Shown piece by piece: positions 3,135 to 59,423 of a stretch of 64,000 nt of DNA; position 1 is the stretch's first letter, and each line of letters begins with the position of its first letter. Below the pieces are notes generated by a model. The model had not been told where the DNA came from. It saw only the letters and a list, made by a program, of their open reading frames with translations, and did not search any database. Where the stretch lies: the NCBI GenBank assembly GCA_030679255.1, contig JAUXTO010000030.1, positions 3,420 to 67,419 of the forward strand, written 5' to 3'. Source of the DNA: Candidatus Gottesmanbacteria bacterium. Lineage in GTDB: Bacteria > Patescibacteriota > Microgenomatia > UBA10105 > UBA927. The position numbers were made by a program, and so were the translations under genes.

Positions 3135-4625
3135 ATGTCTTTCTATCGAATCTATCGCCCGAAGGTATTGGATGAAATAGATAATGCCACGGTCCGGCAC
3201 ACGGTCGAGTTACTCCTCACCAAGCCCAAAACTGAGCTTCCGCATGCATACCTCCTTGTGGGCCCCAGAGGAACCGGTAAAACGACCACCGCGCGTGTCA
3301 TCGCCAAACTTTTCAATTGCGAGCATCCGACCAAATCCGGGGCTCCGTGTGGTAGCTGCGGACCATGTAAAGCAATCGCGGGCGGTCGGCATTTGGATGT
3401 CATGGAGATCGATGCAGCGAGCAATACCGGAGTGGATAATATCCGGGACCTGCGCGACCGCGTGGCCCTCGCTCCTGCTCAGGCCGTATGGAAAATCTAT
3501 ATCATCGACGAGGTACACATGCTTTCGACGGGCGCGTTTAACGCGCTCCTCAAGACGCTCGAGGAGCCCCCGACCCATGCGATTTTTATCCTCGCTACGA
3601 CCGACCCGCAAAAGATCCCGGCGACGGTCGTTTCCCGCTGCCAGGTTGTCTCATTTGGCAAAGCGCAAGCTCCAGATATCACCCACGCGCTTGAGCGGAT
3701 TATCGCGCAGGAAAAGATGAAGATAGACGCCGATGCGCTTTCCCTCATCGTGGACTCTGCGGATGGCTCATTCCGTGACGCCGTCAAAAACCTAGAGCAA
3801 ATCAGTTTTCATAAAGGCACGATTACGGTTGATGTGGTCAGAAGCAATCTGGGCATCGGGGCGCATACAGCCCGTGATACATTTCTTGCTAATATTTTGG
3901 CTCACGACACCAATGCAGCGCTTGGGAACGTCCAAAACGCAGTGAAAGAGGGAATAGACATCAAAGTGTTTCTTGTGGATTGCCTCCGTGAACTTGAACA
4001 CCGTCTGGTAGACCACGTTATCACAAAAAATACCGCCGGAACGATCCACCTCCGGACGCTCATCGAATGTTTCTCCGACGCGTATTCCCAACTTCGTACG
4101 AGCCCGATTCCGGAACTTCCGCTGGAGCTTGCCGTCGTAGAGTATTGTGAACAAAAAAATGAAAAGATTTCTCCGATCATCAATACACCTTTATCCGTCA
4201 TTCCGGGCTTGCTGCGCCCATCCGAAGCTTCCAGCGAAGGAGGGATCCGGAATCCAGTTCCCAAATTGCTGGATCCCGACCCGCTTCGACGTAGCGAGGC
4301 GAGCTCGCTGGCCGGGATGACAAAAAAAGAACCATCATCCGAACCGATTTCCACCGAAACCCTCGGTCTCATCACACGCGAAAAACTTATCGAGCATTGG
4401 AAAGACGTGATCGATGAACTCAAACCCTTTAATCATTCTGTTGCGGGGGTCATGCGCTCCACTAGACCCAAGGAGGTCGTTGATGGTATAGTCACCATAG
4501 AGGCATTTTATAAATTCCATCAGGAAAAATTGTCCGAAGTCAAAACGCGCGAAGTGATTGCAGGGGTTCTCAAAAAATTATTTGGTGAAAAGGTGAGAGT
4601 AGAGGTGGTGCTGGGAAAAAAATAG
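3135..4625 (+). CDS. dnaX: DNA polymerase III subunit gamma/tau
   Basis: Walker A GPRGTGKTT, zinc module CGSCGPC, IDEVHML and SRCQ motifs. Contains a ~124-bp family-3 palindromic element in frame at 4198..4321. Confidence 0.9.
   Translation: MSFYRIYRPKVLDEIDNATVRHTVELLLTKPKTELPHAYLLVGPRGTGKTTTARVIAKLFNCEHPTKSGAPCGSCGPCKAIAGGRHLDVMEIDAASNTGVDNIRDLRDRVALAPAQAVWKIYIIDEVHMLSTGAFNALLKTLEEPPTHAIFILATTDPQKIPATVVSRCQVVSFGKAQAPDITHALERIIAQEKMKIDADALSLIVDSADGSFRDAVKNLEQISFHKGTITVDVVRSNLGIGAHTARDTFLANILAHDTNAALGNVQNAVKEGIDIKVFLVDCLRELEHRLVDHVITKNTAGTIHLRTLIECFSDAYSQLRTSPIPELPLELAVVEYCEQKNEKISPIINTPLSVIPGLLRPSEASSEGGIRNPVPKLLDPDPLRRSEASSLAGMTKKEPSSEPISTETLGLITREKLIEHWKDVIDELKPFNHSVAGVMRSTRPKEVVDGIVTIEAFYKFHQEKLSEVKTREVIAGVLKKLFGEKVRVEVVLGKK
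4198..4321. repeat. family-3 composite palindromic element (GTCATYCCGGC...GCCGGGATGAC) inside dnaX, in frame
   Basis: gtcattccgggc...ggatccggaatcc...ctggatcc...gcgaggcgagc...gccgggatgac. Homologous copies at 8157, 16987, 17507 and 59326. Confidence 0.65.
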
Positions 4626-4719
4626 TGTTGCAGTTCACACTATATTTTATTTCCTAGATTGGGAGTATTTGATTATTGGTACTATTGGGAGTATTCTTTT
4701 CGACGGAAGGAGAAAAGCT

Positions 4720-4986
4720 ATGATGAATCCATTTAAGGCGTTGGGAGACATGAACGCGATGCGCAAGCAAGCCATGGCCATCCAACAGGCGCTCGAAGGC
4801 GAGGAGTTTGAAGTGACCCAGGGCTCTGTCCGCGTCGTTATCACCGGCAACCAAAATGTGAAAGTAGTGGAGGTCGATGGGATGCCAAACGAAGATTTCA
4901 AACGCGCGATCAATGACGCAATCAAAAGAAGCCAACAGGCAGCAGCAGGAAAGTTAGCAGAGTTGTCCAAAAATTTTCAACAGTAA
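4720..4986 (+). CDS. ybaB: nucleoid-associated protein YbaB/EbfC
   Basis: MMNPFKALGDMNAMRKQAMAIQ... is typical YbaB. It follows dnaX as in most bacteria. Confidence 0.8.
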   Translation: MMNPFKALGDMNAMRKQAMAIQQALEGEEFEVTQGSVRVVITGNQNVKVVEVDGMPNEDFKRAINDAIKRSQQAAAGKLAELSKNFQQ

Positions 4987-5100
4987 GCACCTAGCATCAA
5001 AATCCAAGCACCAAACAAGAACAAACAAGAAGTAACTGGGTTGTTTATATATTGATGCTTGTATTTGTTTGTTTGGTACTTGGTGCTTGATGCTTGGAAT
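4985..5100. repeat. family-4 long imperfect hairpin (CCAAGCACCAAA / TTTGGTGCTTGG motifs)
   Basis: Left arm atccaagcaccaaacaagaacaaacaag pairs with right arm cttgtatttgtttgtttggtacttggtgcttgatgcttgg. Related copies at 26163, 43882 and 58254. Confidence 0.6.
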
Positions 5101-5106
5101 TTATAC

Positions 5107-6171
5107 ATGCAGGTTATTGTCACCGGCTCATTGGGCTTCGACTACATCATGGACTTTCCGGGACGGTTTGCCGACCGGATCATGCCGGATAATATCCATA
5201 AACTTTCGTTAAGTTTTCTCGTTGATAAACTTTCTAAACAATTCGGCGGTGTTGCGGGCAACATCGCCTATACACTCAAACTCCTTGGTGTCGATCCTCT
5301 CATTGTCGCCTGTGTAGGCAATGATTTTGCTCCATATAAAACACATCTCAACGATCATCAACTCAGCACGAAATGGATAAAAGAATTTAAAAATGAATCA
5401 TGCAGTCTCTACTCCGTTGTCACTGACCAGGACGATAACCAAATTGGTTCGTATTTCGTGGGAGCCATGAAACATGCAAAAGAATTATCTTTGCAAGACA
5501 TCGTCTTGCGAGGCAAGACGATGTCTTATGAAAATTTCGTCGTCATCTCTCCCACAGATCCCAAAGCTATGATCAAATACGTCAAAGAATGCCGATCACT
5601 CAAGATCCGGTACCTCTATGATCCGGCATTCCAGATTGCGACATTCTCACCAGAGGAACTCAAGGAGGGAATTACCGGCGCGGCCCTTTTCATCGGTAAC
5701 GACTATGAAATCTCCCTTGTGGAAAATCGCCTCGGCATCTCCCATGATGAGCTTCTCGCCATGGCGCCAGTCGTCATCACGACCCTGGGAGCCAAAGGCT
5801 CCATCATCGAGACCCGCAAGGAAGCCATCCACGTTGCTCCCGCCAAACCCAAAAATACCAGCGACCCGACTGGAGCGGGGGACGCCTACCGCGGGGGCTT
5901 CCTCGCCGGATACATAAAAGCTCTAGGCACAAGGCCAGGCCTTGAGGTTAGACAGCTTTCGGTTTCCCCAGGCACAAAACTGCACACTCTAGGCACAAGG
6001 CCTGGCCTTGAGGCTACGTTGTCCGCTGATGAACTTCTTGTCTGCGGTCAGATGGGCTCGGTCGCCGCCGTCTACACGGTCGAGACCTACGGCACCCAGA
6101 CCCACGCCTTCACGAAAAAAGAATTTGCAGCGCGTTATAAGGCCAACTTTGGGCTCCCGATCTCGTTATGA
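5107..6171 (+). CDS. PfkB-family carbohydrate/nucleoside kinase (putative adenosine kinase)
   Basis: PfkB signature DPTGAGDAYRGGFLAGY. Two family-1 palindromes are inserted in frame (GTRPGLEV...GTRPGLEA) after the signature. Neighbouring ahcY suggests an adenosine substrate. Confidence 0.75.
   Translation: MQVIVTGSLGFDYIMDFPGRFADRIMPDNIHKLSLSFLVDKLSKQFGGVAGNIAYTLKLLGVDPLIVACVGNDFAPYKTHLNDHQLSTKWIKEFKNESCSLYSVVTDQDDNQIGSYFVGAMKHAKELSLQDIVLRGKTMSYENFVVISPTDPKAMIKYVKECRSLKIRYLYDPAFQIATFSPEELKEGITGAALFIGNDYEISLVENRLGISHDELLAMAPVVITTLGAKGSIIETRKEAIHVAPAKPKNTSDPTGAGDAYRGGFLAGYIKALGTRPGLEVRQLSVSPGTKLHTLGTRPGLEATLSADELLVCGQMGSVAAVYTVETYGTQTHAFTKKEFAARYKANFGLPISL
5927..5950. repeat. family-1 palindrome GGCACAAGGCCWGGCCTTGAGGYT (copy in PfkB kinase CDS)
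   Basis: ggcacaaggccaggccttgaggtt. Confidence 0.7.
5993..6016. repeat. family-1 palindrome (second copy in PfkB kinase CDS)
   Basis: ggcacaaggcctggccttgaggct. A partial copy ggcacaaaac lies at 5971. Confidence 0.7.
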
Positions 6172-6875: not shown

Positions 6876-8144
6876 ATGAAAAATTCTCTCTCTCATGATG
6901 TCGCTAATCTCAAACTTGCCCCGGAGGGCAAAAAGAAAATCGAGTGGGCAGGGCAAAACAGCCCGGTCCTCAATCTCATTACAGAAGAATTCTCCAGAAC
7001 CAAACCGCTGAAGGGGCTCACGATCGCCGCATGCCTCCACGTCACAAGCGAAACCGCCAATCTTATGTTGGCGTATGTGGCAGGTGGTGCCAAAGTCGTC
7101 CTGTGTGCCAGCAACCCGTTATCCACGCAGGATATGGTCGCCGCGTCGCTCGTCGTAGACTACGGTATCCCGGTGTTTGCCATCCATGGGGAAGATAAAA
7201 AAACATATTACCAACATCTCAATAAAGCGCTTGATTTCCATCCAAATCTTACTACTGATGATGGAGCGGATCTCGTATCGCTGCTTCATACGGAGCGTAC
7301 CAAGCAGCTTGTTGAACTCATTGGAAGCGCTGAGGAAACCACGACCGGCGTCATCCGACTTAAAGCTATGGCCCACGATAAAGCACTCAAGATTCCTGTC
7401 CTTGCCATCAACGAAAGCGATACGAAGCATCTGTTTGACAACCGCTACGGTACGGGCCAGTCAACGGTGGACGGCATCATCCGGACGACGAATATCCTTC
7501 TTGCCGGCAAACGCGTGGTCGTATGCGGTTACGGCTGGTGCAGCCGGGGCATTGCTTCCCGCATGCGCGGAATGGGCGCAATCGTCACGGTGACGGAAGT
7601 TGATCCCGTCAAAGCACTTGAGGCGGTCATGGACGGATTCACCGTCGATCAGATCGGCCGGGCTGTGCGCTACGGCGACGTATTCGTTTCGGCCACAGGA
7701 GACAAGCAGGTTATCACCCTCGCCCACATGAAACGGATGAAGGATGGCGCGATCCTTGCTAACTCCGGTCACTTCAATGTGGAGTTTGACTATGACGGAC
7801 TCGTGAAACTTGCCAAATCACGAAGGATTTTGCGCAATAATCTCGAGGAGCTCGTCCTTCCAACGGGCAAACGACTCTACGCCCTCGGCGAGGGGAGACT
7901 TATTAATTTGGCAGGCGCCGAAGGACACCCGGCGGAAGTCATGGATATGAGCTTTGCCAACCAGGCCTTGGGAGCCGCGTGGTTTGTGAAGCGCAAGGGC
8001 ACGCTGCAGCCCAAAGTCTACGTGCTTCCGAAAGACGTGGATCAGCGCGTTGCCCGTCTCAAACTCCGTGCCATGGGGATGCGCTTTGACCGGTTGACCC
8101 AAATCCAGCGCAAGTACCTACATAGCTGGACGGAAGGGACATAA
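6876..8144 (+). CDS. ahcY: S-adenosyl-L-homocysteine hydrolase (adenosylhomocysteinase)
   Basis: 422 aa, NAD-binding GYGWCSRG (cf. canonical GYGDVGKG), and an N-terminal substrate domain typical of AhcY. Confidence 0.9.
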   Translation: MKNSLSHDVANLKLAPEGKKKIEWAGQNSPVLNLITEEFSRTKPLKGLTIAACLHVTSETANLMLAYVAGGAKVVLCASNPLSTQDMVAASLVVDYGIPVFAIHGEDKKTYYQHLNKALDFHPNLTTDDGADLVSLLHTERTKQLVELIGSAEETTTGVIRLKAMAHDKALKIPVLAINESDTKHLFDNRYGTGQSTVDGIIRTTNILLAGKRVVVCGYGWCSRGIASRMRGMGAIVTVTEVDPVKALEAVMDGFTVDQIGRAVRYGDVFVSATGDKQVITLAHMKRMKDGAILANSGHFNVEFDYDGLVKLAKSRRILRNNLEELVLPTGKRLYALGEGRLINLAGAEGHPAEVMDMSFANQALGAAWFVKRKGTLQPKVYVLPKDVDQRVARLKLRAMGMRFDRLTQIQRKYLHSWTEGT

Positions 8145-8156
8145 ACGACCACGTTC

Positions 8157-8250
8157 GTCATTCCCGCGTACGCTCGCCTCGCTGGAGCTCCGGCGAAGCG
8201 GGCGGGAATCCAGAGTAAAAACACTGGATCCCGGCCTTCGCCGGGATGAC
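8157..8250. repeat. family-3 composite palindromic element (intergenic copy)
   Basis: gtcattcccgcg...gcgggaatcc agagtaaaaacactgg atcccggccttcgccgggatgac. Imperfect terminal inverted repeats GTCATYCCSGCG. Confidence 0.65.
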
Positions 8251-8259
8251 AATATTTCC

Positions 8260-8802
8260 ATGTCATTGCTATCAATACTATTCACCGCTCTCAACCTTTC
8301 CTTTGCCCTCCTCATTTTTTTCCTGACCCTTGCCTTTGCAACCGGTGCGCCATTCGTGCGGTCCAATAAAAAGGCGGTGGACGCCATGATCCGGCTCGCG
8401 CGCCTCAAGCCCGGCATGAAGGTGTACGATCTGGGCTCCGGCGATGGCACGCTTCTTTTTCGTGCAGCCGACCTTGGAGCAATTGCAGTTGGACTGGAAA
8501 TCAATCCCTTCCTCGTCCTGTGGACAAATATAAAAATTCTTCTCTCATTAGACAGAAATAGAGTTACCGTCCGGTGGCAAAACTTCTGGCGCACCGATAT
8601 TCATGACGCAGACGTCGTCTTCGTCTATCTCCTCCCGTGGCGGATGGAAAAACTCGCAACAAAATTAGAAAATGAACTCAAGCCTGGTAGCCTCGTCATC
8701 TCCAACAGTTTTATTTTCCCAAACTGGAAAATTCTTCGCAGCGATGAATCCAGCCACATCTACGTATTTAAAATTATTGACAACCCATCCTCTTCGGCGT
8801 AA
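8260..8802 (+). CDS. class I SAM-dependent methyltransferase (small, N-terminal TM helix)
   Basis: Motif I VYDLGSGDGTLL and post-I DLGAIAVGLE. Confidence 0.55.
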   Translation: MSLLSILFTALNLSFALLIFFLTLAFATGAPFVRSNKKAVDAMIRLARLKPGMKVYDLGSGDGTLLFRAADLGAIAVGLEINPFLVLWTNIKILLSLDRNRVTVRWQNFWRTDIHDADVVFVYLLPWRMEKLATKLENELKPGSLVISNSFIFPNWKILRSDESSHIYVFKIIDNPSSSA

Positions 8803-8811: not shown

Positions 8812-9126
8812 ATGATTACTGACGCAGATATCAAGAAACTCAAAAAAGTCTTTGCCACCAAGGATGATCTGAAACAGTTTGCCACCAAGGATGATCTGAA
8901 ACAGTTTGCAACGAAAGAGGACTTCAACACCATGGAAAGAACATTGAGAGGCGATATCGCAAACGACCTTAAGTACATGGAAGCCAGATTAAGAAAAAAC
9001 ATTGTTGACGATGTCGCAGATATGTTGCAGGAGAGTGTTATCAATCTGTTGAGCCAACACGAAGAACGAATCGACCGCTTGGAAAAGCACGTTGGCGGTT
9101 TTCCAGCAATCGCGAGCGCCAGTTGA
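8812..9126 (+). CDS. hypothetical small protein with FATKDDLKQ tandem repeats
   Basis: Three 9-aa repeats (27-bp DNA tandem) followed by a charged helical tail. A paralogue lies at 56988..57269. Confidence 0.5.
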   Translation: MITDADIKKLKKVFATKDDLKQFATKDDLKQFATKEDFNTMERTLRGDIANDLKYMEARLRKNIVDDVADMLQESVINLLSQHEERIDRLEKHVGGFPAIASAS

Positions 9127-9715: not shown

Positions 9716-11596
9716 ATGAAACACAATGACAACGAGTATCTCAACAACATGCGCCATAGTTGCGCGCACTTGCTTGCTCACGCAATAAAGATCCTGTATC
9801 CGGGAGCACTCAATGCCATAGGACCTGCAATAGAACACGGATTCTATCAGGATTTTGATATGGGCAAGTGGAAAATTTCTGAAGAAGATTTCCCCAAGAT
9901 TGAAGCAAAAATGCGAGAGATTCTTCCAAGGTGGGTGAAATTTAGCTTCAACGAAATATCTCTTGCAGAAGCGATACGACTATTCAAAGACAATAAGTAT
10001 AAAGTCGAAATGGCCACAGAATTTGCCGCAGGCGGCAAAAAGCTCATGACTAACGACCCGGGAGACTTTCTGGATCTTTGTAAAATGGGCCATGTCGAAA
10101 ATCCCTCCAAAGAACTCTCGAACTTCGAACTACTCTCCGTCGCCGGCGCTTACTGGCGGGGAAGCGAAAAAAATAAAATGTTGACACGGATTTACGGCAC
10201 CTGTTTCCCGACCAAAGATGAACTCGATGCCCATCTTCATCAATTGGAAGAATCCAAAAAAAGAGATCACCGTAAAATAGGTCAGGATCTGGATTTATTT
10301 TCGACAAACCCACTTACAGGACAGGGTCTTATCCTCTGGCACCCAAAGCTCTCCGTGACCCGAAATATCGTAGAACAATTTTGGAAGGCAGAACATTATA
10401 AGCGGGGATATCAGCTTGTTTATACGCCCCATATCGCAAGCATGGATATGTTTGTCAAAAGCCGTCACCTGTCCAAATACATCAATTCCATGTTTCCCGT
10501 CATGCTGCATGAGTACATCGAGGGAGAGAGTGCTCCGGATTATCAGGTCGACGAGATACTCAAACCCATGAACTGCCCCAATCATATTCAGATATACAAA
10601 CACCGGCCGCGAAGTTACCGCGAGCTACCGTTGAGGATCGGAGAACTTGGGACGGTGTACCGCTATGAACGCGCAGGAGTCCTTCATGGACTAACGAGAG
10701 TACGGGGATTTACCCAGGACGACTCACACATCTTCTGTACATCTGATCAGGTGATCGATGAGGTACGCGGGGTACTCCGGATTATGAAAGATTTTTACGC
10801 GCTGTTTGGCTTTAAGGACTATCAGGCATATATTTCCACCCGTCCGGAAAAATATCTCGGAACCCTTGAGACGTGGCACATGGCCGAAGAATCACTCAAA
10901 AAAGCGGCTGCCGACGAAGGCTTTGATTACAAAATAGACGAAGGTGAAGGGGTATTTTATGGACCAAAAATCGATATCAAAGTCAAAGACTCTATCGGCC
11001 GGGAATGGCAACTCGGTACGGTGCAGTTTGACTTTAACCAGCCATCTCAAGCGGAGACCACGGATGATGAGATCGAAGAGTTTTGGAAGCTCAAGACGTT
11101 TAAACATAAATTCAAGACTAAAGAAGCGATGGCCAAATACCTCCGGAAACTTGGACGAGGATTTAATGTAACGTATGTGGATGCCGATGGAAAAGAAAAA
11201 CAGTGCGTCATGATCCATCGAGTAATTTTCGGCTCTTTGGAACGCTTCTTTGGCATCCTCATCGAACACTACGCCGGAGCGTTTCCTGTGTGGCTTGCCC
11301 CAGTCCAAGTAGCCCTCATTCCGATAGCTGAGCGGCATAATGAAGGGGCAAAAAAGGCCCTACAGGCTCTACGGGACGCGGGGCTACGCGTGGAGCTTGA
11401 TGACCGCAATGAGTCGATGCAGGCCAAAATCAGGAATCACACATTGCAAAAAGTGCCCTACCTGGCTATAATGGGAGATCGTGAGATCCAGGGTGCAACT
11501 GTATCCGTGAGGACCAGGAGCGGCGAGGATCTCGGGGCTATGAGCCTCGAGCAATTTGTCCGCAACGTCAACGACGAGATTGAACGCAAACACTAA
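9716..11596 (+). CDS. thrS: threonine--tRNA ligase
   Basis: N2 editing-domain HxxxH (CAHLLAH), class II core, C-terminal anticodon-binding domain. Lacks the TGS domain and carries a ~35-aa insertion near 11050..11160. Confidence 0.9.
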   Translation: MKHNDNEYLNNMRHSCAHLLAHAIKILYPGALNAIGPAIEHGFYQDFDMGKWKISEEDFPKIEAKMREILPRWVKFSFNEISLAEAIRLFKDNKYKVEMATEFAAGGKKLMTNDPGDFLDLCKMGHVENPSKELSNFELLSVAGAYWRGSEKNKMLTRIYGTCFPTKDELDAHLHQLEESKKRDHRKIGQDLDLFSTNPLTGQGLILWHPKLSVTRNIVEQFWKAEHYKRGYQLVYTPHIASMDMFVKSRHLSKYINSMFPVMLHEYIEGESAPDYQVDEILKPMNCPNHIQIYKHRPRSYRELPLRIGELGTVYRYERAGVLHGLTRVRGFTQDDSHIFCTSDQVIDEVRGVLRIMKDFYALFGFKDYQAYISTRPEKYLGTLETWHMAEESLKKAAADEGFDYKIDEGEGVFYGPKIDIKVKDSIGREWQLGTVQFDFNQPSQAETTDDEIEEFWKLKTFKHKFKTKEAMAKYLRKLGRGFNVTYVDADGKEKQCVMIHRVIFGSLERFFGILIEHYAGAFPVWLAPVQVALIPIAERHNEGAKKALQALRDAGLRVELDDRNESMQAKIRNHTLQKVPYLAIMGDREIQGATVSVRTRSGEDLGAMSLEQFVRNVNDEIERKH

Positions 11597-12113
11597 TCGT
11601 AAATTTTATCGCCTCAACTACCAAATCGCAGCGAGCGAGGTGCGTCTTTTGGACGAAGAGGGGAAGCAGATCGGGGTAGTGAGTAAGCTCGCGGCGCTCC
11701 AAAAAGCCAAAGAGCTGGGGCTTGATATAGTGGAAATTGCACCAAACGCGAAGCCGCCGGTAGCTAAGCTCATTGATTACAAGAAGTTTAAGTATCAGGA
11801 GGCTAAAAAAGAACGTGAGGGGCGGAAAAGTCAAAAAAATGTTGGCGTGAAGGAAATCCGGCTCAGGCCATTTATCGGACAGCATGATTTTGATACCAGG
11901 GTCGCCAAAGCAAAAGAATTTCTAAGCGATGGCAATCAGGTCAAGGTGACACTCTCTTTTAAAGGACGGGAGATGACGCGGAAAGAATTTGGATTTGCCG
12001 TCGTCAAGCGTTTTATAGAGTCACTCGAGTCGATCAAAGTCGTCCGTGAGCCTAAAGTGCTTGGGCGATATATCGAAGCCATGATCGTGAATGATAAAAA
12101 AGGATCCGTATGA
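11580..12113 (+). CDS. infC: translation initiation factor IF-3
   Basis: EVRLLDEEGKQIGVV...KFKYQ is the IF3 N- and C-domain signature. Start is uncertain: track TTG at 11556, a second in-frame TTG at 11580, and ATC at 11625. It overlaps the thrS 3' end, as is common. Confidence 0.8.
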   Translation: MNANTNRKFYRLNYQIAASEVRLLDEEGKQIGVVSKLAALQKAKELGLDIVEIAPNAKPPVAKLIDYKKFKYQEAKKEREGRKSQKNVGVKEIRLRPFIGQHDFDTRVAKAKEFLSDGNQVKVTLSFKGREMTRKEFGFAVVKRFIESLESIKVVREPKVLGRYIEAMIVNDKKGSV

Positions 12114-13074: not shown

Positions 13075-14973
13075 TTGAGAAGAAAAAATATGACCAACCT
13101 TATCTACATGACCGACAGTTACCGGACTGAGCTTGCCGCTCAGGTGGTGTCGTGCATCAAAAAGGGGAGCGGGTGGGAGATAGTGCTCGACCAAACGATT
13201 TTCTACCCGCAGGGGGGCGGGCAACCGTCAGACAAAGGAACGATCAAGGGAAAACAGGGGCTTGCGACGGTCAAGCATGTCCGGATGTTGGGCGATGAGG
13301 TCATCCACGAATGTGCCTTGAATGGGACAATCGATGAAAAGGAGTCGGTTGAATGTTCCATCGATTGGAATGCTCGGTACCACAACATGCGTGCCCATAG
13401 CGCGGGTCACGTCGTCCATGAAGCGGTGAGGCTCGTCGCGCCATATCTGGATCCGATTAAAGGAGAGCACGGAAAATCCGCATATATTGAGTACAAGGGT
13501 TCTCTTCCTGTCGACAAAAAACCACTTATCGAACAACAAGGTAACGACCTAATCCGACAAAATTTGACCCTTAAAACCGAATTTGTGACTCTGGACGAAC
13601 TTCAAAAGAGAGCTTCGTACATTCCTGAGCATCTTCCAAAACACAAGCCGCTTCGCATTCTTTCGGTAGGTAACTATCCACCTATTCCCGATGGGGGTAC
13701 GCAGGTAAAATCCACCGGAGAAATAGGGGAGATAACTATTACTTCAGTGGATAACGCAGATGATCACGTTCGTGTTTACTACGCAATACCTCCAAACGAA
13801 TCCGATGAAACAAAAAACGATACCTGCCAATCAGTCGACTCAACTGTATCAACATCTAGGCACGATACCGGGAATCAAGCAATCAAAGTGGATCAAATTA
13901 TGACCGCCCCGCAATTTATCGGCCTTCTCTTGGATGCTCAACGCAATGCTAAAGAATTTATTACCATTTCAGATAAATCAGCCGAAGAACTTCGATTGCT
14001 TCTTTTAGGCCCGAAAAGCGAACTTGGCCGGCTCACCAAACAAATCCGTCAAGTACCAGCCTCCGATCGAGGGAATGTCGGGGTGGTCGTCAACGAAGTC
14101 AAGAGTTCTATTATTGAGGCCATCGCCATCCACGCCGCTCATTCCACAACTTCAAAGCCTGGCTTTGATTTGAATTGGGCCGATGTAACAATCCCGGGTA
14201 TTCGACCCCCCGAAGGTCATCTGCATATTGTGTCACAGGCGATCACTGAAATCACGCGGATTTTCGAACGGATCGGCTTCACGCGCGTCCGGCACCCGGA
14301 GGTTGACTGGGATTACTATGCGTTTGAGGCGCTTAACATGCCGCCGCACCACCCGGCCCGCGACGAATGGGAAACCTTCTTCATCGACTACCCCGGCAAA
14401 CCTCCAGGCACAAGGCCTGGCCTTGAGGCTACGCGCAGGAAACAAATTGTGCTTACTCCCCACACGAGCAATGGCCAGGTGCGTGAGATGGAAAAGGGAA
14501 AGCTTCCCATCCGCATGATCAACATTGCTAAGTGTTATCGTCGTCAATCCGATGTATCCCACGTCCCGATGTTTCATCAATTTGAAGGCATGTATATTGA
14601 TAAAGGAGTCACCATCGGAGACTTGACTGGAGTATTTAATTTTTTCGTAAAAAATTACTTTGGTCCAGACCGCAATGTCCGTTTACGCCCGTTCCATTTT
14701 CAATTCACCGAGCCTTCTGTTGAAATTGATATCAACTGTGGTATTTGTCTGGGCAAGGGATGTCGATTGTGCAAAGAAGGTTGGCTTGAAATGGCTGGTG
14801 GGGGTATGGTGCACCCAAATGTACTTAAAGCTGGTGGGGTAGATCCGAGCGTCTACAGTGGTTTTGCTTTTGGATGGGGTGTTGAACGCGCCGCCATGAT
14901 GAAATCCGGCACCAAACTCGATGACATCCGATTGCTGTATAGCAATGACATTCGATTTCTCAATCAATTCTAA
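13075..14973 (+). CDS. pheS: AlaX-like tRNA-editing domain fused to phenylalanine--tRNA ligase alpha subunit
   Basis: N-terminal ~270 aa resembles AlaX (YMTDSY...FYPQGGGQPSDKGTI...HSAGHVV...DGGTQVKSTGEIG). C-terminal ~350 aa is PheS (class II motifs, LTPHTSNGQVR, FGWGVERAAM). No stop codon separates them. Family-1 palindrome in frame at 14407..14430. Confidence 0.75.
   Translation: MRRKNMTNLIYMTDSYRTELAAQVVSCIKKGSGWEIVLDQTIFYPQGGGQPSDKGTIKGKQGLATVKHVRMLGDEVIHECALNGTIDEKESVECSIDWNARYHNMRAHSAGHVVHEAVRLVAPYLDPIKGEHGKSAYIEYKGSLPVDKKPLIEQQGNDLIRQNLTLKTEFVTLDELQKRASYIPEHLPKHKPLRILSVGNYPPIPDGGTQVKSTGEIGEITITSVDNADDHVRVYYAIPPNESDETKNDTCQSVDSTVSTSRHDTGNQAIKVDQIMTAPQFIGLLLDAQRNAKEFITISDKSAEELRLLLLGPKSELGRLTKQIRQVPASDRGNVGVVVNEVKSSIIEAIAIHAAHSTTSKPGFDLNWADVTIPGIRPPEGHLHIVSQAITEITRIFERIGFTRVRHPEVDWDYYAFEALNMPPHHPARDEWETFFIDYPGKPPGTRPGLEATRRKQIVLTPHTSNGQVREMEKGKLPIRMINIAKCYRRQSDVSHVPMFHQFEGMYIDKGVTIGDLTGVFNFFVKNYFGPDRNVRLRPFHFQFTEPSVEIDINCGICLGKGCRLCKEGWLEMAGGGMVHPNVLKAGGVDPSVYSGFAFGWGVERAAMMKSGTKLDDIRLLYSNDIRFLNQF
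14407..14430. repeat. family-1 palindrome inside pheS (encodes GTRPGLEA)
   Basis: ggcacaaggcctggccttgaggct. Confidence 0.7.
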
Positions 14974-15408: not shown

Positions 15409-17496
15409 ATGAATATATTAGTACCAGATTCATGGTTGCGAGAATTCCTTATTACAAAGGCAACTCCGCAGCAAATCAAGGAATACCTCTCTTTGTGCGG
15501 TCCATCGGTTGAACGGATGCATGAGGAGGATGGGGAATTCATTTATGACATCGAGGTTACGGGCAACCGCCCGGATTCAATGTCCATAGTGGGTATCGCG
15601 CGAGAAGCGGCAGCCATCCTCCCACGCTTTGAAATTGCGGCAAAATTACAAAATGATCCCTATTCACAAAACTACGCACAAAAGGTGAGACCTTTTGAGG
15701 CTAATAATTTGACAAAAAAACTCGTTATCAAAACCGATCCGATCCTCAATCCGCGTTGGACGAGCGTCGTTATGGATAACGTGAAGGTGGGGCCGTCGCC
15801 AGTATGGCTTCAAAAACGGCTCGAGGCAACGGGGATCCGCTCGCTGAACACGATTGTCGATGTGACCAATTACATCATGCGGGCCTATGGTCAACCGGTT
15901 CATGCGTTTGACTACGACCAGGTACTGCCAAAAAATGGCGTTTCCACCATGATCCTTCGTGCCTCAAAAAAAGGAGAGCGGGTGATCACTCTCGATGGCA
16001 AAACGCACATCCTGCCCGGTGATGACATCGTCATAGAGGACGGATCAGGGAGACTTATCGACCTATGCGGCATCATGGGCGCCCAAAATTCATCGGTAAA
16101 AAGCACAACGAAAACCATTGTCCTCTTTATGCAAACGTACGAACCCACGCACATCAGAAAAACCAGCATGTCTTTGGCCCATCGAACAGAAGCAGCCGAT
16201 CTTTTTGAAAAGGGGCTCGATCCGGAACTGGTTTTGCCCTCGGTTCTCAAAGGAATTGAACTTATCGCCCAGGTTGCTGGAGGAAAAGTCTCAAGTAAAA
16301 TTTACGATATCTACCCCAAACCGTATAAATCATCTACTGTTTCCGCCTCTCGGACAAAGTCTGATGCCTACATCGGCAAACGTCTGAAAGACAAAGAGAT
16401 TGCCGATATTCTCAAACCCCTCGGTTTCCAAGCAAAAGTCACCAAAGACAGTATCACGGTCACGGTTCCCAGTTTCCGCCGGGATGTGACGATTGACGTC
16501 GACATCATCGAGGAACTGGCACGCATCTACGGCTACCACAACATCACGTCGACCCTTCCGGACACCGCCCCGCCCGTCGTTATACCCGATCAATCACTTA
16601 GTTGGGAGGAAGAAATCAAAGTGCGACTGCGCGATTGGGGATACACCGAAACCTACACCTACTCCATGATTTCCGAAGAACTTATGGATATCTTTGGATT
16701 GGACAAATCTAAAGCGTATAAAATTGCCAATCCATTATCCAACGAATGGGTCTACATGCGACCCAGCCTCTGGCCCAGCATGCTTTCTACCGTCAAACAA
16801 AACATGAATATAACACAAAATCTAAGACTCTTTGAGTTGAGTATGGTATATGATTACCGACGCGGCGATCTTCCCGACGAAAAGCCCGTTTTACTCATTG
16901 CGTGGACAGGAGATAAATTTTATGAAGCGAAGGGACTCGCGGAGGCAATTCTTGATTTGCTTGGTATCGGGATACCTGCCGAATCTGTCATCCCGGCGAA
17001 CGCCGGGATCCAGAGTACAAAAAAACTGGATCCTCGGGTCAAGCCCGAGGATGACAAGCAACTCGATTGGTACGGCGCACAACGACTATCATTTGGTAGT
17101 TTTGGATCCATCGGACTCGTTCACCAGAAATTTCTTGATGCATTACAAATTCATACACCCGTAACCATCCTGGAATTGGATGTTGCAGAGCTTGTCAAGT
17201 ATGCGCGCTCCACCAAGCAATACATCCCCATCCCAAAATATCCTGCAAGCTACGAGGACCTAGCATTCGTGTTGCCACCACAGACACCCGTCGGCCCCAT
17301 GATTGCCGCGCTCAAATCCGCACACTCATTAGTGAGCGACGTTTCACTCTTAGATCAATTTGAAACCACGACCACCTTTCACATCACCTATCTTTCATTG
17401 GAAAAAAATTTGACAACTGAAGATATCCGCCCCATCCGCGAGAAGCTCATCGCCATGGCCCAAAAGAAATTCAACGCGCAGCTCAAGACAGTGTAA
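15409..17496 (+). CDS. pheT: phenylalanine--tRNA ligase beta subunit
   Basis: MNILVPDSWLREFL N-terminus, B3/4 and B5 domains, C-terminal FDX-ACB-like domain. 695 aa, so likely lacks the tRNA-binding B2 domain. 69-bp family-3 element in frame at 16987..17055. Confidence 0.9.
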   Translation: MNILVPDSWLREFLITKATPQQIKEYLSLCGPSVERMHEEDGEFIYDIEVTGNRPDSMSIVGIAREAAAILPRFEIAAKLQNDPYSQNYAQKVRPFEANNLTKKLVIKTDPILNPRWTSVVMDNVKVGPSPVWLQKRLEATGIRSLNTIVDVTNYIMRAYGQPVHAFDYDQVLPKNGVSTMILRASKKGERVITLDGKTHILPGDDIVIEDGSGRLIDLCGIMGAQNSSVKSTTKTIVLFMQTYEPTHIRKTSMSLAHRTEAADLFEKGLDPELVLPSVLKGIELIAQVAGGKVSSKIYDIYPKPYKSSTVSASRTKSDAYIGKRLKDKEIADILKPLGFQAKVTKDSITVTVPSFRRDVTIDVDIIEELARIYGYHNITSTLPDTAPPVVIPDQSLSWEEEIKVRLRDWGYTETYTYSMISEELMDIFGLDKSKAYKIANPLSNEWVYMRPSLWPSMLSTVKQNMNITQNLRLFELSMVYDYRRGDLPDEKPVLLIAWTGDKFYEAKGLAEAILDLLGIGIPAESVIPANAGIQSTKKLDPRVKPEDDKQLDWYGAQRLSFGSFGSIGLVHQKFLDALQIHTPVTILELDVAELVKYARSTKQYIPIPKYPASYEDLAFVLPPQTPVGPMIAALKSAHSLVSDVSLLDQFETTTTFHITYLSLEKNLTTEDIRPIREKLIAMAQKKFNAQLKTV
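16987..17055. repeat. family-3 palindromic element inside pheT (69 bp, in frame)
   Basis: gtcatcccggcgaacgccgggatcc agagtacaaaaaaactgg atcctcgggtcaagcccgaggatgac. Two small hairpins flank a spacer. Encodes VIPANAGIQSTKKLDPRVKPEDD. Confidence 0.7.
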
Positions 17497-17506
17497 TGCA
17501 AATTTT

Positions 17507-17564
17507 GTCATCCCCGACCCGCTTCGCCGGAGCGTCAGCGAGGCGAGCGTACGCCGGAAATGAC
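17507..17564. repeat. family-3 palindromic element module (intergenic, after pheT)
   Basis: gtcatccccgacccgcttcgccggagcgtcagcgaggcgagcgtacgccggaaatgac. Confidence 0.55.
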
Positions 17565-17572
17565 ATACTTTA

Positions 17573-27741: not shown

Positions 27742-27990
27742 ATGAAAGATACCCTCCTTTTTCTCGTGGCCTCAATTGTGGATCATCCCGATGACGTATC
27801 CGTCATCGAAGAGATCAATGAAGATCGTACGATTCTTCGCCTAACCTGCCACCCTGAAGACATGGGTAAAGTCATCGGAAAAAGCGGCCGGATCATCCGG
27901 GCAATCCGGGATCTGGTCAAACTCATCGCGGCCAAACGCGGAGTATACGCCGATGTGGAGTTAGTAGAAAATAATCCAATAAAGGAATAA
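27742..27990 (+). CDS. KH-domain RNA-binding protein (YlqC/UPF0109 family)
   Basis: VIGKSGRIIRAIRDL is a KH GxxG-type motif. Sits in the canonical position after rpsP. Confidence 0.8.
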   Translation: MKDTLLFLVASIVDHPDDVSVIEEINEDRTILRLTCHPEDMGKVIGKSGRIIRAIRDLVKLIAAKRGVYADVELVENNPIKE

Positions 27991-28073: not shown

Positions 28074-28083
28074 TCCTCCTTGT

Positions 28084-43814: not shown

Positions 43815-43881
43815 ACTCCATCCATTATCAACTAGCGATCATATATAATGCAAGATGCGGGAACAAACCGGAGCGCAAAAA

Positions 43882-44010
43882 TTCCAAGCACCAAGCAACA
43901 AATACCAAACAAACTCAAAGCACCAATGTGCAAAAAAATAAAACGGTTTCGAACATTTGAATTTGGAATTTTGTATTTGTTTGGAATTTGGTGCTTGAGA
44001 TTTGGAATTT
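43882..44010. repeat. family-4 long hairpin (ccaagcaccaagcaacaaataccaaacaaa ... tttgtatttgtttggaatttggtgcttgag)
   Basis: Intergenic, between pilB and holB. Confidence 0.6.
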
Positions 44011-44879: not shown

Positions 44880-45356
44880 ATGTATGTACTTATTCCAACA
44901 TCACTGGGAGGAGAGCGCAGCAGTGAACCACCATATGCAAGAACCCCGTTAGATGAAATTCCTGACGATCGGTGGGGAAATATATGGCTGAAGATGAATC
45001 GTCGTCCATACAGTGGTGTGCGCTTGGAATTTGATAGTGAAGAAGCTCGAATACTTGAACAGGCGGGATTGTTTAATCGTTTAATCGGTGGAAAAAAACC
45101 GAACACTGAACACCTAATTACAATTTTAACAGAAACTTTTACACAAGAAGCTGATGGACCAAGCAAAAATGTAACATTTGTTAGACTTACCGGAAAGTTT
45201 GATCAAACTTCAGGCCCAACAACTCCTGACGATACCGTCTTAGGCACAGTCTTTCCCCATGCTTTAACTGATCATTTCAAGCCATTGTTCACAAAATTAG
45301 TTAATAGCGGACGTGCTACAGTTCCAAAGGCATTGCTCAATTCTGTCAATCAATAG
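44880..45356 (+). CDS. hypothetical protein
   Basis: 158-aa ORF with an upstream G-rich RBS and no recognisable motifs. Confidence 0.35.
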   Translation: MYVLIPTSLGGERSSEPPYARTPLDEIPDDRWGNIWLKMNRRPYSGVRLEFDSEEARILEQAGLFNRLIGGKKPNTEHLITILTETFTQEADGPSKNVTFVRLTGKFDQTSGPTTPDDTVLGTVFPHALTDHFKPLFTKLVNSGRATVPKALLNSVNQ

Positions 45357-46080
45357 CCATCTTCCCAATCACGAACTTCGAATCCTCGCCGTAGTCCTCG
45401 ACAAAACTCTCATACGATAGGAAATCCCGATAATCTCTGCGTTGTGCCGATCGAAAATAATCTAAGATATGCTCCGGATGCAACCACGAGGCTTGCTTCA
45501 AGCGCAGATAATACGGATAACTCGAGTATGGATACTCCCTCACACTGACAGGGCGAGACCCTGTCACTTCTTTTGGATTCAAGTGAATGTACCGGGTGAC
45601 ATGAAGGAGATACGAATCGCGATCAATGTACGCCGCTTTATATGGCCCTTGAAACAATGTTCCAATTCGCTTATATCGCTTATTGAAATACATGGAATAG
45701 CTCGTACATATAGCTTGAAGGAAGTTTGCCATACCGTAAGATTCTTTTTGATAAAGCACCAAGTGAAAATGGTTTGGCATCAAACAGTAGGCGAGAAGGG
45801 AGACTTCTTCAGCAAATGAACGCAGTGGCCGTATTCTGACAGGGCGAGACCCTGTCATTTTATCTAACGGATGCTCCAAAACCTTTTTAGGATCCAATTG
45901 AGGAGAAAGGTATGCCTTTAAGAAGCTTAAAAACACCCGATAATCCTGATCGTCAAGGAATATCAACCGCTTTTCGACACCACGATTGTATGCGTGGTAA
46001 TTGCCACCCGCAACATAAAGCTTCACGGTATTTTGCGAAGGCATACACCGATAATAATTGACAGGGCGAGACCTTGTCAA
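45346..46080 (-). CDS. REP-associated tyrosine transposase (RAYT) / IS200-like HUH transposase
   Basis: YHAYNRG...LAYCLMPNHFHLVL...YIHLNP...YPYSSY has the HUH motif and Tyr region. Paralogous to ORF 1..572. Three family-2 palindromes in frame (45546, 45837, 46059), so the true start may be M at 46044. Confidence 0.75.
   Translation of the reverse strand: MTRSRPVNYYRCMPSQNTVKLYVAGGNYHAYNRGVEKRLIFLDDQDYRVFLSFLKAYLSPQLDPKKVLEHPLDKMTGSRPVRIRPLRSFAEEVSLLAYCLMPNHFHLVLYQKESYGMANFLQAICTSYSMYFNKRYKRIGTLFQGPYKAAYIDRDSYLLHVTRYIHLNPKEVTGSRPVSVREYPYSSYPYYLRLKQASWLHPEHILDYFRSAQRRDYRDFLSYESFVEDYGEDSKFVIGKMAID
45546..45566. repeat. family-2 palindrome inside RAYT gene (encodes VTGSRPVSV)
   Basis: tgacagggcgagaccctgtca. 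Confidence 0.75.
45837..45857. repeat. family-2 palindrome inside RAYT gene (encodes MTGSRPVRI)
   Basis: tgacagggcgagaccctgtca. Confidence 0.75.
46059..46079. repeat. family-2 palindrome variant at RAYT 5' end
   Basis: tgacagggcgagaccttgtca. Confidence 0.7.
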
Positions 46081-46112: not shown

Positions 46113-48131
<2,019 letters not shown>

Positions 48132-56944: not shown

Positions 56945-56987
56945 CCGCTTGCAAATCAAAAATGTCCTGTTCTATACTTGGCATACT

Positions 56988-57269
56988 ATGACAAACGCGA
57001 TGCCCATCACGAAGGATGACCTCAAAACAGTACTCAAGGAACTCAATATTGCAACAAAGGACGATCTCAAACCATTTGCAACAAAGGACGATCTCAAAGG
57101 ACTTTCCACAAAAGATGATCTTCTCCACCTCGAACGAAGGCTCAAGCTCCGTATGGGCAAACACCGCAATGAAATCTTTACCATGGTTGGCAATCTGGCA
57201 ACCAGTACTCCGAGCCGTCGTGAATTTGAGAGCCTCAAAAGTCAAAGTCGCTTTATCGCACACTCGTAG
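56988..57269 (+). CDS. hypothetical small protein with TKDDLK tandem repeats (paralogue of 8812..9126)
   Basis: ITKDDLK, ATKDDLK, ATKDDLK, STKDDLL followed by ERRLKLRMGKHR. Confidence 0.5.
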   Translation: MTNAMPITKDDLKTVLKELNIATKDDLKPFATKDDLKGLSTKDDLLHLERRLKLRMGKHRNEIFTMVGNLATSTPSRREFESLKSQSRFIAHS

Positions 57270-58248: not shown

Positions 58249-58253
58249 ATAAA

Positions 58254-58384
58254 TACCAAGCACCAAATTCCAAGTATCAAACAAATTCCAATTTCAATCC
58301 GCCAGTTGGCGGACTAAACGTTTTGAACATTGGTGCTTAGAATTTTGATATTGTTTGGAATTTGGTGCTTGTGATTTGGAATTT
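58254..58384. repeat. family-4 long hairpin with central gccagttggcgg stem-loop
   Basis: ataccaagcaccaaattccaagtatcaaacaaattccaa ... ttgatattgtttggaatttggtgcttgtgatttggaat. Confidence 0.6.
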
Positions 58385-58389
58385 CGCTT

Positions 58390-59313
58390 TCATTTCCGAT
58401 GAAAGCGTTGGTGTATCTCCCGCAACTGTGGATTGGTGATGTGTGTATAAATTTGCGTCGTCGACACATTTTTATGTCCGAGTAGTTCTTGGATTGCGCG
58501 TAGGTCAGCGCCACTACTGAGAAGATCCGTTGCAAAACTATGCCGCAACCCGTGGGGAGTAATTTTGACGGGTAACCGGGCCTTCTTCACATACTTTTCA
58601 ACCGACCGCTGGACGCTCCTGGGCGAGAGTCTTCTCGATTCCCCGGTTTTATCGTCCTCGTCCGGCGTTTTCCCAGAGTAGCGGATAAACATGGGCTTCC
58701 ACGCGTCATCGCGGCTCTTGAGATACCGCCCGAGCCACTCGGCGGCTGTATCGGACACAAACACGACTCTCGAGCGTCGGCCTTTCCCGATAATGCCAAA
58801 TTCTTTGCGCTCTAAATTAATCTGATCACGGTTAAGCGACACGAGTTCCGAAACCCGCAGACCAGTCGAAAACAAAAGCTCGAGAATTGCTTTATCCCGA
58901 AATCCCTCAGGAGTACTGATTTCGGGCATATTGAGAAGTCGTTCGACGCCGTCCCGTTCCAAAAATTTAATGCTGTGGCTTTCTGCCTTCCCGAGCTCGA
59001 CCATTTCCGGGGCGACAACCGGAATGCCGCGCTTGATGAGGAATTTGAGAAACGACCGGAGGGCAATCAGATGATAATTTTGCGTCACGCGTTTGAGCGT
59101 CAGTTCATGGGAATCCGTATAGCGGGATAAAAACAACCGGTACTCGCGTATTTTTTCCGGAGTAATGTCGCTAGGGGAGAGTACTTGGCCCCCCAGAAAG
59201 CCCAAAAACCGCTCCATATAGTGTTTATAATTGCGGATCGTAAGCTTGGAAACATTTCGCTCGAGTTCAAGATATTCCAGAAAATCAATAAGCAACTGGG
59301 AAAGATCCTTCAT
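58390..59313 (-). CDS. site-specific tyrosine recombinase XerC/XerD family
   Basis: C-terminal catalytic region HGLRHSFATDLL...LLGHKNVSTTQIYTHI (R-H-R-Y). Confidence 0.85.
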   Translation of the reverse strand: MKDLSQLLIDFLEYLELERNVSKLTIRNYKHYMERFLGFLGGQVLSPSDITPEKIREYRLFLSRYTDSHELTLKRVTQNYHLIALRSFLKFLIKRGIPVVAPEMVELGKAESHSIKFLERDGVERLLNMPEISTPEGFRDKAILELLFSTGLRVSELVSLNRDQINLERKEFGIIGKGRRSRVVFVSDTAAEWLGRYLKSRDDAWKPMFIRYSGKTPDEDDKTGESRRLSPRSVQRSVEKYVKKARLPVKITPHGLRHSFATDLLSSGADLRAIQELLGHKNVSTTQIYTHITNPQLREIHQRFHRK

Positions 59314-59325
59314 AAAGTGTATGTT

Positions 59326-59423
59326 GTCATCCTCGGGCTTGACCCGAGGATCCAGTCAAAACCCCCCTGGATTCCCGCCCGCTTCGCCAAAGCGACGGCG
59401 AGGCGAGCCTTCGCGGGAATGAC
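59326..59423. repeat. family-3 composite palindromic element (intergenic, opposite orientation to the 8157 copy)
   Basis: gtcatcctcgggcttgacccgaggatcc agtcaaaacccccctgg attcccgcccgcttcgccaaagcgacggcgaggcgagccttcgcgggaatgac. Confidence 0.65.

Follow-up and report, generated by a model that had tools for sequence, protein, structure and literature searches.

A palindromic repeat bounded by GTCATYCCSGC recurs between genes, and in frame inside dnaX and pheT, in a 64,000-nt stretch of a Candidatus Gottesmanbacteria genome (contig JAUXTO010000030.1, positions 3,420 to 67,419), which was analysed as a whole and is referred to here as the window. By identity and history this element is very probably a compact inverted dimer of CGTC-tagged repetitive extragenic palindromic (REP) hairpins, of the kind described as CGTC-1, dRS3 or NTS repeats. 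The composite consists of two nested families, namely the CGTC units and an independent 30-nt hairpin that stands by itself in gyrB. The repeat is a DNA element and not a conserved protein segment, since the same DNA lies between genes in both orientations and the closest homologues of the host proteins lack the segments. The full account, according to which CGTC-REP dimers and the nested module were gained and lost within the lineage and are likely substrates of an enzyme that acts on single-stranded DNA (ssDNA), has in our estimate a probability of about 0.75.

Inverted dimers of CGTC-tagged hairpins

The terminus GTCATYCCSGC occurs six times in the window against 0.15 expected, and none of 100 shuffled sequences reached six. 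Together with direct reading of the copies, this bears out the first-pass annotation in treating the repeat as real. The inventory, based on directly read sites, a hairpin scan and hidden Markov model (HMM) scans of the window, comprises four compact inverted dimers, one collapsed solo copy and one 30-nt piece in gyrB (Table 1); the HMM scans of the 64 kb gave no copies beyond it. A GTCATYCCSGC match at 57317, on the wrong strand of a D-Ala-D-Ala-ligase-like gene and without a hairpin, was set aside as chance, as were, upon inspection, pattern matches at 15268, 29379, 47065, 20576, 25309 and 16462. When folded as ssDNA, the intact copies outfold all or nearly all of their shuffles (z = -5.7 for 8156-8251, -3.4 for 59325-59424, -5.9 for the pheT copy and -2.8 for the dnaX copy), and neither the solo copy (z = -1.9) nor the gyrB piece (z = -0.7) folded clearly better than shuffles.

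Table 1 Positions of the repeat copies, their parts and their host genes in the window
Feature	Position	Strand	Remarks
Inverted dimer	8156-8251	+	intergenic, 12 nt past the ahcY stop codon, upstream of a methyltransferase gene
Large-loop CGTC unit	8156-8213	+	part of the 8156-8251 dimer; HMM match
Inner module GCTCGCCTCGC..GCGAAGCGGGC, 30-31 nt hairpin	8172-8203	+	loop of the 8156-8213 unit; nhmmer E = 1.2e-9
Spacer AGTAAAAACA	8214-8223		between the units of the 8156-8251 dimer
Canonical small-loop unit	8224-8251	-	fits the published SRM pattern; HMM match
Inverted dimer	59325-59424	-	intergenic, between divergent genes: XerC/D-like recombinase (start 59313) and an open reading frame (start 59456)
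Large-loop unit	59367-59424	-	inner module at 59377-59408
Spacer	59356-59366		of the 59325-59424 dimer
Unit, 9-bp stem and 5-nt loop	59325-59355	+	SRM match
dnaX, host gene	3135-4625	+	Pfam DNA_pol3_delta2, DnaX_C; 100% match to P0121 (Candidatus Gottesmanbacteria)
Inverted dimer in dnaX linker, in frame	4196-4322	+	GTCAT..ATGACA, 126 nt, 42 codons
dnaX left arm, large-loop unit	4196-4257	+	inner module diverged
dnaX right arm, large-loop unit	4269-4322	-	inner module at 4280-4304
pheT, host gene	15409-17496	+	Pfam B3_4, B5, tRNA_synthFbeta, FDX-ACB; 100% match to P0001 (Candidatus Gottesmanbacteria)
Inverted dimer in pheT, in frame	16986-17056	+	two small-loop units; 69 nt, 23 codons
pheT units	16986-17013, 17026-17056	+, -	both match SRM; spacer AGTACAAAAAAA
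Predicted PheT junction peptide			VIPANAGIQSTK
Solo derivative	17506-17567	+	between the convergent pheT and penicillin-binding protein (PBP) genes; sixth copy, missing from the first-pass annotation; TGTCAT, degenerate stem, inner module (17518-17548), degenerate stem, ATGACA
gyrB, host gene	46137-48131	+	Pfam HATPase_c, DNA_gyraseB, Toprim, DNA_gyraseB_C; 100% match to P0391; database product starts at M16, 46182
Inner module alone in gyrB, in frame	46658-46687	+	30 nt, 10 codons; between G and K codons, loop of the ATPase domain

Each unit consists of a (C/T)GTC head, a stem started by AT (ATTCCCGC, ATCCCGGC or ATCCTCGGG), a loop, the complementary stem and CCAG. The stems have 8-9 bp and the small loops 4-5 nt; the large-loop units have a loop of 34 nt. 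In the dimers the CCAG/CTGG tails of both units point inward across a spacer of 10-12 nt, and the whole dimer starts with GTCAT and ends with ATGAC(A), preceded by a pyrimidine-rich (YY) and followed by a purine-rich (RR) flank. The head reads CGTC at 8156, 4196 and 59424 (reverse complement) and TGTC at 16986, 59325, 17506 and, in reverse complement, at 17056, 8251 and 4322. The two intergenic dimers had been described as reverse complements of each other, which holds for the large hairpin arm only (59 nt, 88%); the spacers differ, and so do the small hairpins, which read ATCCCGGC-CTTC-GCCGGGAT in 8156-8251 and ATCCTCGGG-TCAAG-CCCGAGGAT in 59325-59424. The solo copy, whose inner module is recognised by nhmmer at E = 6.8e-10, probably arose from a dimer by loss of the centre; at its position relatives have unrelated hairpins or no spacer.

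CGTC-1 repeats were defined as hairpins with an 8-bp AT-started stem, a 4-nt loop and a CCA tail that occur mostly as inverted dimers, and were equated with Neisseria dRS3 and with RPE-6 of Rickettsia conorii (PMC3733652). The window units have the unpaired CGTC tetranucleotide of this family (variants TGTC, CCTC), and two of them also have its stem, loop and tail, namely 16986-17013 (ATCCCGGC-GAAC-GCCGGGAT-CCAG) and the reverse complement of 8224-8251 (ATCCCGGC-GAAG-GCCGGGAT-CCAG). Four of the five window loci show the inverted-dimer layout, as do those of the relatives L121 and L122. NTS is a sequence of 28 nt (CGTCATTCCCGCGMAVGCGGGAATCYRG), published along with a degenerate Ssn-related motif (SRM; PMC11893778). 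Searching the window with the SRM pattern HGTCWYN(0-2)YYVSBRHN(0-5)WNVSBRGN(0-2)RNCYNB returned four small-loop units of the element, compared to 0.24 matches expected from 50 Markov simulations. Removal of the 30 nt GCTCGCCTCGCCGTCGCTTTGGCGAAGCGG from the large unit 59367-59424 leaves exactly the canonical NTS, GTCATTCCCGCGAAGGCGGGAATCCAG. Because of the SRM matches, the CGTC-1 features and the NTS restored by module removal, we assign the window units to the CGTC-1/NTS family. The first-pass annotation had called the element distinct from REPs; it does differ from the two other REP families of the window, but CGTC, dRS3, NTS and SRM units themselves belong to the REP class (PMC3733652, PMC11893778).

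A fifth SRM match (16462-16491, minus strand) is due to chance: it falls on conserved codons of pheT (SFRRDVT, TTCCGCCGGGATGTGACG) that happen to resemble the NTS terminus, a warning for motif-based counts. In an Rfam scan of the window a single tRNA reached the gathering score. Around 8100-8300 all matches were below threshold; one, to the Francisella small RNA (sRNA) FtrB, scored 24 bits where the gathering score is 66 and falls on a small hairpin unit (8216-8266, minus strand). GCGGGAATGAC is also found in a paper on Francisella sRNAs, and it is possible that copies of the CGTC/NTS repeat have in some cases been annotated as sRNAs.

The unit is found far beyond the window. A scan for the 27-mer GTCATYCCNGCNNNNGCNGGRATCCAG, in which each prokaryotic species was represented by one genome, matched at least 120 genome stretches, where by our estimate about one was expected. 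The matches listed come from alpha-, beta-, gamma- and delta-proteobacteria, Nitrospirota, Chloroflexota, Planctomycetes, Gemmatimonadetes, Bacteroidetes and Neisseria, and also from the Candidate Phyla Radiation (CPR; Parcubacteria, Paceibacteria, Saccharibacteria, Uhrbacteria) and one Nanoarchaeota metagenome-assembled genome (MAG). Eighteen loci among the matches listed share the inverted-dimer layout; their spacers, 16-83 nt long, are unrelated, and their flanks too are of the YY and RR type and lack direct repeats. The 27-mer is also borne by at least 120 IMG/VR viral contigs. Two of the loci deserve a description. In Rhodopseudomonas pentothenatexigens (L050:5845-7310) a tandem array has formed around the unit, with six NTS units on one strand, five about 310 nt apart and the sixth 195 nt further on; five of the six read YWIPASAGMT/YWIPACAGMT in open frames of 350-396 codons. 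The Nanoarchaeota MAG (L074:965-2716, GC 0.37) holds an NTS unit in frame in a 584-codon open reading frame (ORF); a GSGTTTAVAH-like stretch typical of DNA methyltransferases is encoded downstream of the unit. The NTS unit is thus intragenic in a DPANN archaeon too.

The architecture invites comparison with MITEs (miniature transposable elements with inverted repeats), and the element had been annotated as MITE-like. Two inverted ends of about 27 nt around a short variable centre, with 70-125 bp overall, have the shape of a classical MITE, that is, a deletion derivative of an insertion sequence with a DDE transposase, moved by cut-and-paste. We nevertheless consider this origin highly improbable and abandon the label: no target-site duplication accompanies the five window copies, the 18 dimers of other genomes or the filled and empty gyrB sites described below, each supposed terminal inverted repeat is a complete self-folding hairpin unit that is also found singly, and none of the window's transposase genes has such ends.

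In-frame copies and the nested module

The dnaX element encodes 42 amino acids (VIPGLLRPSEASSEGGIRNPVPKLLDPDPLRRSEASSLAGMT), which according to Pfam follow the ATPase/lid domains and precede DnaX_C (from residue 414 on). Minimal DnaX relatives (430-431 aa) have a linker of about 11 amino acids at this site. The linker is a hotspot, as other relatives have different inserts of a VIPA..AGIQ type, and the insert of P0135 (VISAKAHLAMAPAKRAVIQ) is of the large-loop type. A 124-bp version had been reported here; its presence in the linker is confirmed, and from GTCAT to ATGACA it measures 126 nt.

In pheT the reported 69-bp version was found as described, encoding 23 amino acids (VIPANAGIQSTKKLDPRVKPEDD) that the closest PheT homologues lack. 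Other PheT relatives have similar VIP..RDD segments, either at the window's site or about 130 residues upstream. At the DNA level these inserts are CGTC dimers (L121, L122), one of them with an inner module; pheT of L123 and L124 contains no CGTC unit. An AlphaFold model of PheT, moderate in quality with a mean pLDDT of 68.5, shows a coil at residues 531-550, where pLDDT stays below 50. This coil is placed after helix 504-517 and before strand 555-561, and the 10-residue blocks that flank it (491-520, 561-600) average a pLDDT of about 90. The insert is therefore predicted to be a disordered, low-confidence coil.

Comparison of DnaX, PheT and GyrB with their relatives, which the first-pass annotation had put forward as a check, found the segments absent from the closest homologues. 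Its statements that all genic copies are in frame (42, 23 and 10 codons) and that their translation is tolerated agree with our results: the canonical unit is open in five of six frames, the composites in two to four and the inner module in all six, and the PheT insert is modelled as a coil between well-modelled elements. The motif VIP[AGVS] was found in 11 of 120 PheT and 9 of 120 DnaX homologues of the clade. A literature search for element peptides (VIPAKAGIQ, RGNDG, AGMTG) returned nothing relevant.

These in-frame positions in essential proteins could also mean that the inserts are selected protein linkers or loops, with the DNA similarity secondary. Such selection is scarcely probable, because the same DNA is found outside genes in both orientations, the frames differ between genes (GIQ/EDD in PheT, RNP/GMT in DnaX), most orthologues lack the inserts, and that of PheT is modelled as low-confidence and disordered.

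The gyrB copy is of another kind. It had been listed as a fragment of the composite; it is instead exactly the 30-nt loop module, free-standing. The possibility that it is a decayed CGTC unit (TGTC..GAC ends) was dropped after alignment with E. coli GyrB and with close relatives. Window GyrB has exactly ten residues more than E. coli GyrB, with both flanks aligned, and the insert was found in none of 150 diverse representatives. In an alignment of 121 sequences, made of the window ORF and 120 close homologues including the window's own product P0391, six have the insert (the window ORF, P0391, P0392, P0393, P0401 and P0402) and 115 do not, among them P0394, which is 95% identical. In a neighbour-joining tree the insert carriers take at least three separate positions. 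The empty site of the relative L245 reads GG^TAAA, the filled site holds CCCGCTTCGCCGGAGCGACAGCGAGGCGAG, and no target-site duplication is seen. GyrB homologues of 1000-1400 aa from Gottesmanbacteria and others (P0462, P0465, P0494 and many of P0241-P0390) contain inteins (Pfam Intein_splicing), and one carries the name 'intein-containing DNA gyrase subunit B'. In this clade, two unrelated kinds of selfish in-frame insert reside in GyrB.

The inner module, a hairpin of 30-31 nt with consensus GCTCGCCTCGCTGAAGCTTCGGCGAAGCGGG, lies in the loop of four or five window units. The motif gcgaggcgagc, previously taken for a part of the element, does lie in the loop of the large hairpin, and belongs to a separate hairpin module that occurs independently. 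Scanning metagenomes with the pattern GCTCGCCTCGC-N6-12-GAAGCGGG yielded at least 120 loci, many from groundwater samples such as the Hainich series, from which L246 also comes. The consensus derives from 65 copies of the 31-nt class among the matches listed, in which the central positions left unconstrained by the pattern are strongly conserved. In an automated count of 123 inner modules among the matches listed, seven are nested in CGTC-unit stems and about ten in other outer palindromes (CCTGCCT..AGGCAGG, CCGCC..GGCGG), and most have no adjoining outer stem; tandem arrays also occur, e.g. in L211. Inside open frames of at least 250 codons lie 33 of 125 modules among the matches listed, and ten intragenic ones that were checked include LeuRS (twice), DnaG, SecA, PolA (in tandem), LigA, GyrB (at the same site) and UPF0182. 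The IMG/VR viral scan gave five matches, approximately the estimated chance level, and thus no sign of phage carriage, and a literature search with the module sequence found nothing in a relevant context. In the relative L246 (19659-19684) an inner module lies in folD, within a TCACTCATCACTCA-type repeat context, and at the corresponding place in L245 (18512-19330) folD is called as two ORFs.

Tentatively, we read the inner module as an ultra-small and hitherto undescribed module that is mobile or propagated by recombination in groundwater bacteria of CPR type. It may lodge at the apex of other palindromes, including NTS/CGTC units, and in frame in loops of essential informational proteins, and near-identical strains may have gained and lost it recurrently at one codon boundary of gyrB, along with a short divergent patch. 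If so, it would imply either a structure- or site-specific ssDNA enzyme or transformation-linked short-patch recombination.

Candidate enzymes and modes of spread

We propose that the CGTC unit would be recognised, as an ssDNA hairpin, by a sequence-specific ssDNA enzyme, for which a single-domain GIY-YIG nuclease of Ssn type (cd10448), with its gene outside the window, would be the best candidate. Copies would spread by insertion at an ssDNA stage and/or by short-patch homologous recombination of incoming DNA. They have been gained and lost, between and within genes, in the Gottesmanbacteria lineage. Intragenic copies have survived only where their length is a multiple of three, their frame is open and the site is a tolerant surface loop or linker, and the encoded peptides would be by-products and not a selected function. 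The 94-aa GIY-YIG protein SsnA binds and cuts NTS solely as ssDNA, and NTS often flanks ssn genes (PMC11893778). In agreement with that report, Ssn-like GIY-YIG ORFs of 94 aa adjoin NTS matches in Methylotenera (L030) and in the viral contigs L250, L290, L312 and L340, the last with the arrangement NTS-ssn-NTS. An Ssn-based mechanism in the Gottesmanbacteria host is possible, and we hold it with reserve. A GIY-YIG ORF in L132 is of a different subfamily and has no flanking copies of the repeat.

Several observations weigh against this account. Neither a regular expression search nor tblastn with the Ssn-like ORF of L030 detected a GIY-YIG gene in the 64-kb window, and no Ssn-type GIY-YIG gene was found in approximately 0.8 Mb of related and metagenomic loci. 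The large-loop units fall outside the SRM pattern, which permits loops of up to 5 nt, and are at most possible Ssn substrates. Units 59325-59355 and 17026-17056, with a 9-bp stem and a 5-nt loop, are closer to CGTC-3/4 than to CGTC-1. The nearest PheT and DnaX relatives are just about 75% identical, and mobility of the composite was not directly observed. Finally, the pair of strains that differ at the gyrB site resembles the outcome of short-patch recombination and not of a clean insertion or excision.

In that pair, L247 (filled; 10001-11947 compared) and L248 (empty; 3001-4917) share 99.8-99.9% identity across some 8 kb, with the 30-nt module in gyrB setting them apart. A divergent short patch accompanies the module: of 17 gyrB mismatches 16 lie between -17 and +26 nt of the indel and one elsewhere. 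This clustering in otherwise near-identical sequences would be expected if no dedicated enzyme existed and near-neutral repeats spread by short-patch recombination or gene conversion, e.g. after transformation, together with replication slippage at hairpins. The filled gyrB sites on at least three separate branches of the tree, the solo copy that resembles a dimer without its centre, and the type IV pilus/competence-type genes of the window (T2SSE and T2SSF homologues annotated in syntenic loci) point the same way. Recombination is limited to homologous sites, however, and cannot bring one and the same 27-nt unit to intergenic sites, to genes that are unrelated and to many phyla; that the unit's sequence is so extremely conserved from phylum to phylum speaks for a protein partner. 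Spread by such processes alone is in our view unlikely.

The window does encode a possible mobilising enzyme of another type, an IS200-like Y1 transposase of RAYT type (45346-46080, minus strand; Pfam PF01797, E = 3.5e-9), which might move the CGTC units like REPINs through ssDNA hairpins. The gene lies directly upstream of gyrB, a position kept in L245 and L246, hairpin architecture without target-site duplications is compatible with HUH/Y1 chemistry, and RAYT mobilisation of CGTC REPs was left possible by PMC3733652. The same study found no RAYT with flanking CGTC repeats in any species. In the window the transposase gene is surrounded by another REP family, TGACAGGG..CCCTGTCA, and not by CGTC units, and GTAG-tagged doublets flanking a RAYT gene, which characterise REPIN/RAYT systems, were not found, the tag here being CGTC/TGTC. 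Gene and gyrB module are also uncoupled, as L247 has the module and lacks the gene nearby and L245 has the gene without the module. Mobilisation by this transposase is therefore quite unlikely.

With its own repeats the Y1 transposase gene resembles a RAYT/REP pair ('REPtron'). Palindromic repeats of the form TGACAGGG-N5-CCCTGTCA lie around and within it (44574, 44723, 45546, 45837, 46059), and further TGACAGGG-type repeats at 24433, 24481, 35367, 35724 and 44380. The gene is not found at this place in L247. The 60 nt at 363-422 are 77% identical to 45748-45807, a hint of a second, partial Y1 copy.

Two tyrosine recombinase genes (Phage_integrase family; 58390-59313 and 61026-62045, both minus strand) lie 1.7 kb apart, and the start of the former abuts the repeat copy 59325-59424. 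Neisseria dRS3 is a reported target of phage recombinase (stated in PMC11893778).

Other repeats were noticed in the window. A third palindromic family, AGGCACAAGGCCTGGCCTTGAGGCT, has six copies (141-172, 588-619, 5921-5952, 5987-6018, 14402-14433 and 34599-34630), some of which form close inverted pairs. AT-rich, periodic low-complexity blocks (3042-3146, 27966-28088, 4985-5115, 43866-44010, 58251-58384) are of two types, TTATTCGTTTATTC with a period of 8 nt and GGAATTTGGTGCTTG, and form inverted pairs just upstream of gene starts, including that of dnaX; these blocks may be repeats of promoter regions. At 8851-8904 a 27-nt unit, TTTGCCACCAAGGATGATCTGAAACAG, stands twice in perfect tandem, and 48 kb from there, at 57048-57101, is another tandem pair with 74% identity to it. 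Both pairs lie downstream of a gene on the plus strand, each inside an ORF of about 120 codons on the minus strand.

Relation to known repeats and implications

CGTC REPs, dRS3, NTS and protein-coding palindromes are a known kind of repeat, and the in-frame genic copies of the window are a new instance of a published phenomenon, as intragenic CGTC REP dimers were reported to encode 20-30 aa and to prefer genes of replication and repair and of tRNA synthetases (PMC3733652). With CGTC-1 REPs the window element shares head, stem, loop, tail, inverted dimers, copies within ORFs and the lack of an associated transposase. It differs from them in its host, a CPR bacterium, where PMC3733652 lists Proteobacteria, Chlorobi, Bacteroidetes, Spirochaetes and Thermotogae, in its spacer of 10-12 nt compared to 20-100 nt in most dimers of that study, and in the 30-nt hairpin in the loop of four to five units and the 9-bp stem and 5-nt loop of some partners. 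Its unit sequence is that of NTS (CGTCATTCCCGCGMAVGCGGGAATCYRG) or fits the SRM, but no ssn gene was found in the window, and PMC11893778 is silent on Patescibacteria and on intragenic in-frame copies.

The RPE of Rickettsia are, as summarised in PMC3733652 from Ogata et al. (2000, 2002), in-frame palindromic inserts of a small-genome bacterium that encode loops and leave the protein intact. The window copies are likewise palindromic, in frame and harmless to their ORFs, in that dnaX, pheT and gyrB are full-length with all Pfam domains. RPE-1 in contrast is longer and Rickettsia-specific, and only RPE-4 and RPE-6 are of CGTC type; the link of the window to RPE-6 rests solely on the equivalence stated in PMC3733652. 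An NCBIfam scan of the element-encoded peptides (E up to 10) matched no family, RPE-type or other. REPINs and BIMEs, which are mobilised by RAYT, resemble the element in their inverted hairpin doublets, lack of target-site duplication and presumed ssDNA chemistry, and a RAYT-like gene is present in the window; their tag, however, is GTAG and not CGTC/TGTC, and the RAYT-like gene goes with another REP family. Neisseria NIMEs also have inverted dRS3-type units around a variable central segment, but are large intergenic arrays with segments of 50-150 bp, whereas the window has single compact dimers, half of them intragenic.

The host clade, the very compact dimer and the nested independent 30-nt module with its strain-level polymorphism appear to be new. 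Our literature search found no paper that links CPR to REP or MITE elements, and PMC3733652 and PMC11893778 are silent on CPR. The results extend CGTC/dRS3/NTS repeats and Rickettsia-type 'protein-coding palindromes' to the CPR, where these repeats enlarge and diversify the essential proteins DnaX, PheT and GyrB in minimal genomes. They are possible confounders of gene calling, phylogenetic markers and strain comparisons. The nested module may represent a new element of extremely small size, either mobile or associated with recombination. Ssn ssDNA nucleases, of which NTS is the substrate, modulate transformation in Neisseria, and the abundance of NTS in presumably competent, DNA-scavenging CPR bacteria lets the pairing of nuclease and repeat be tested directly.

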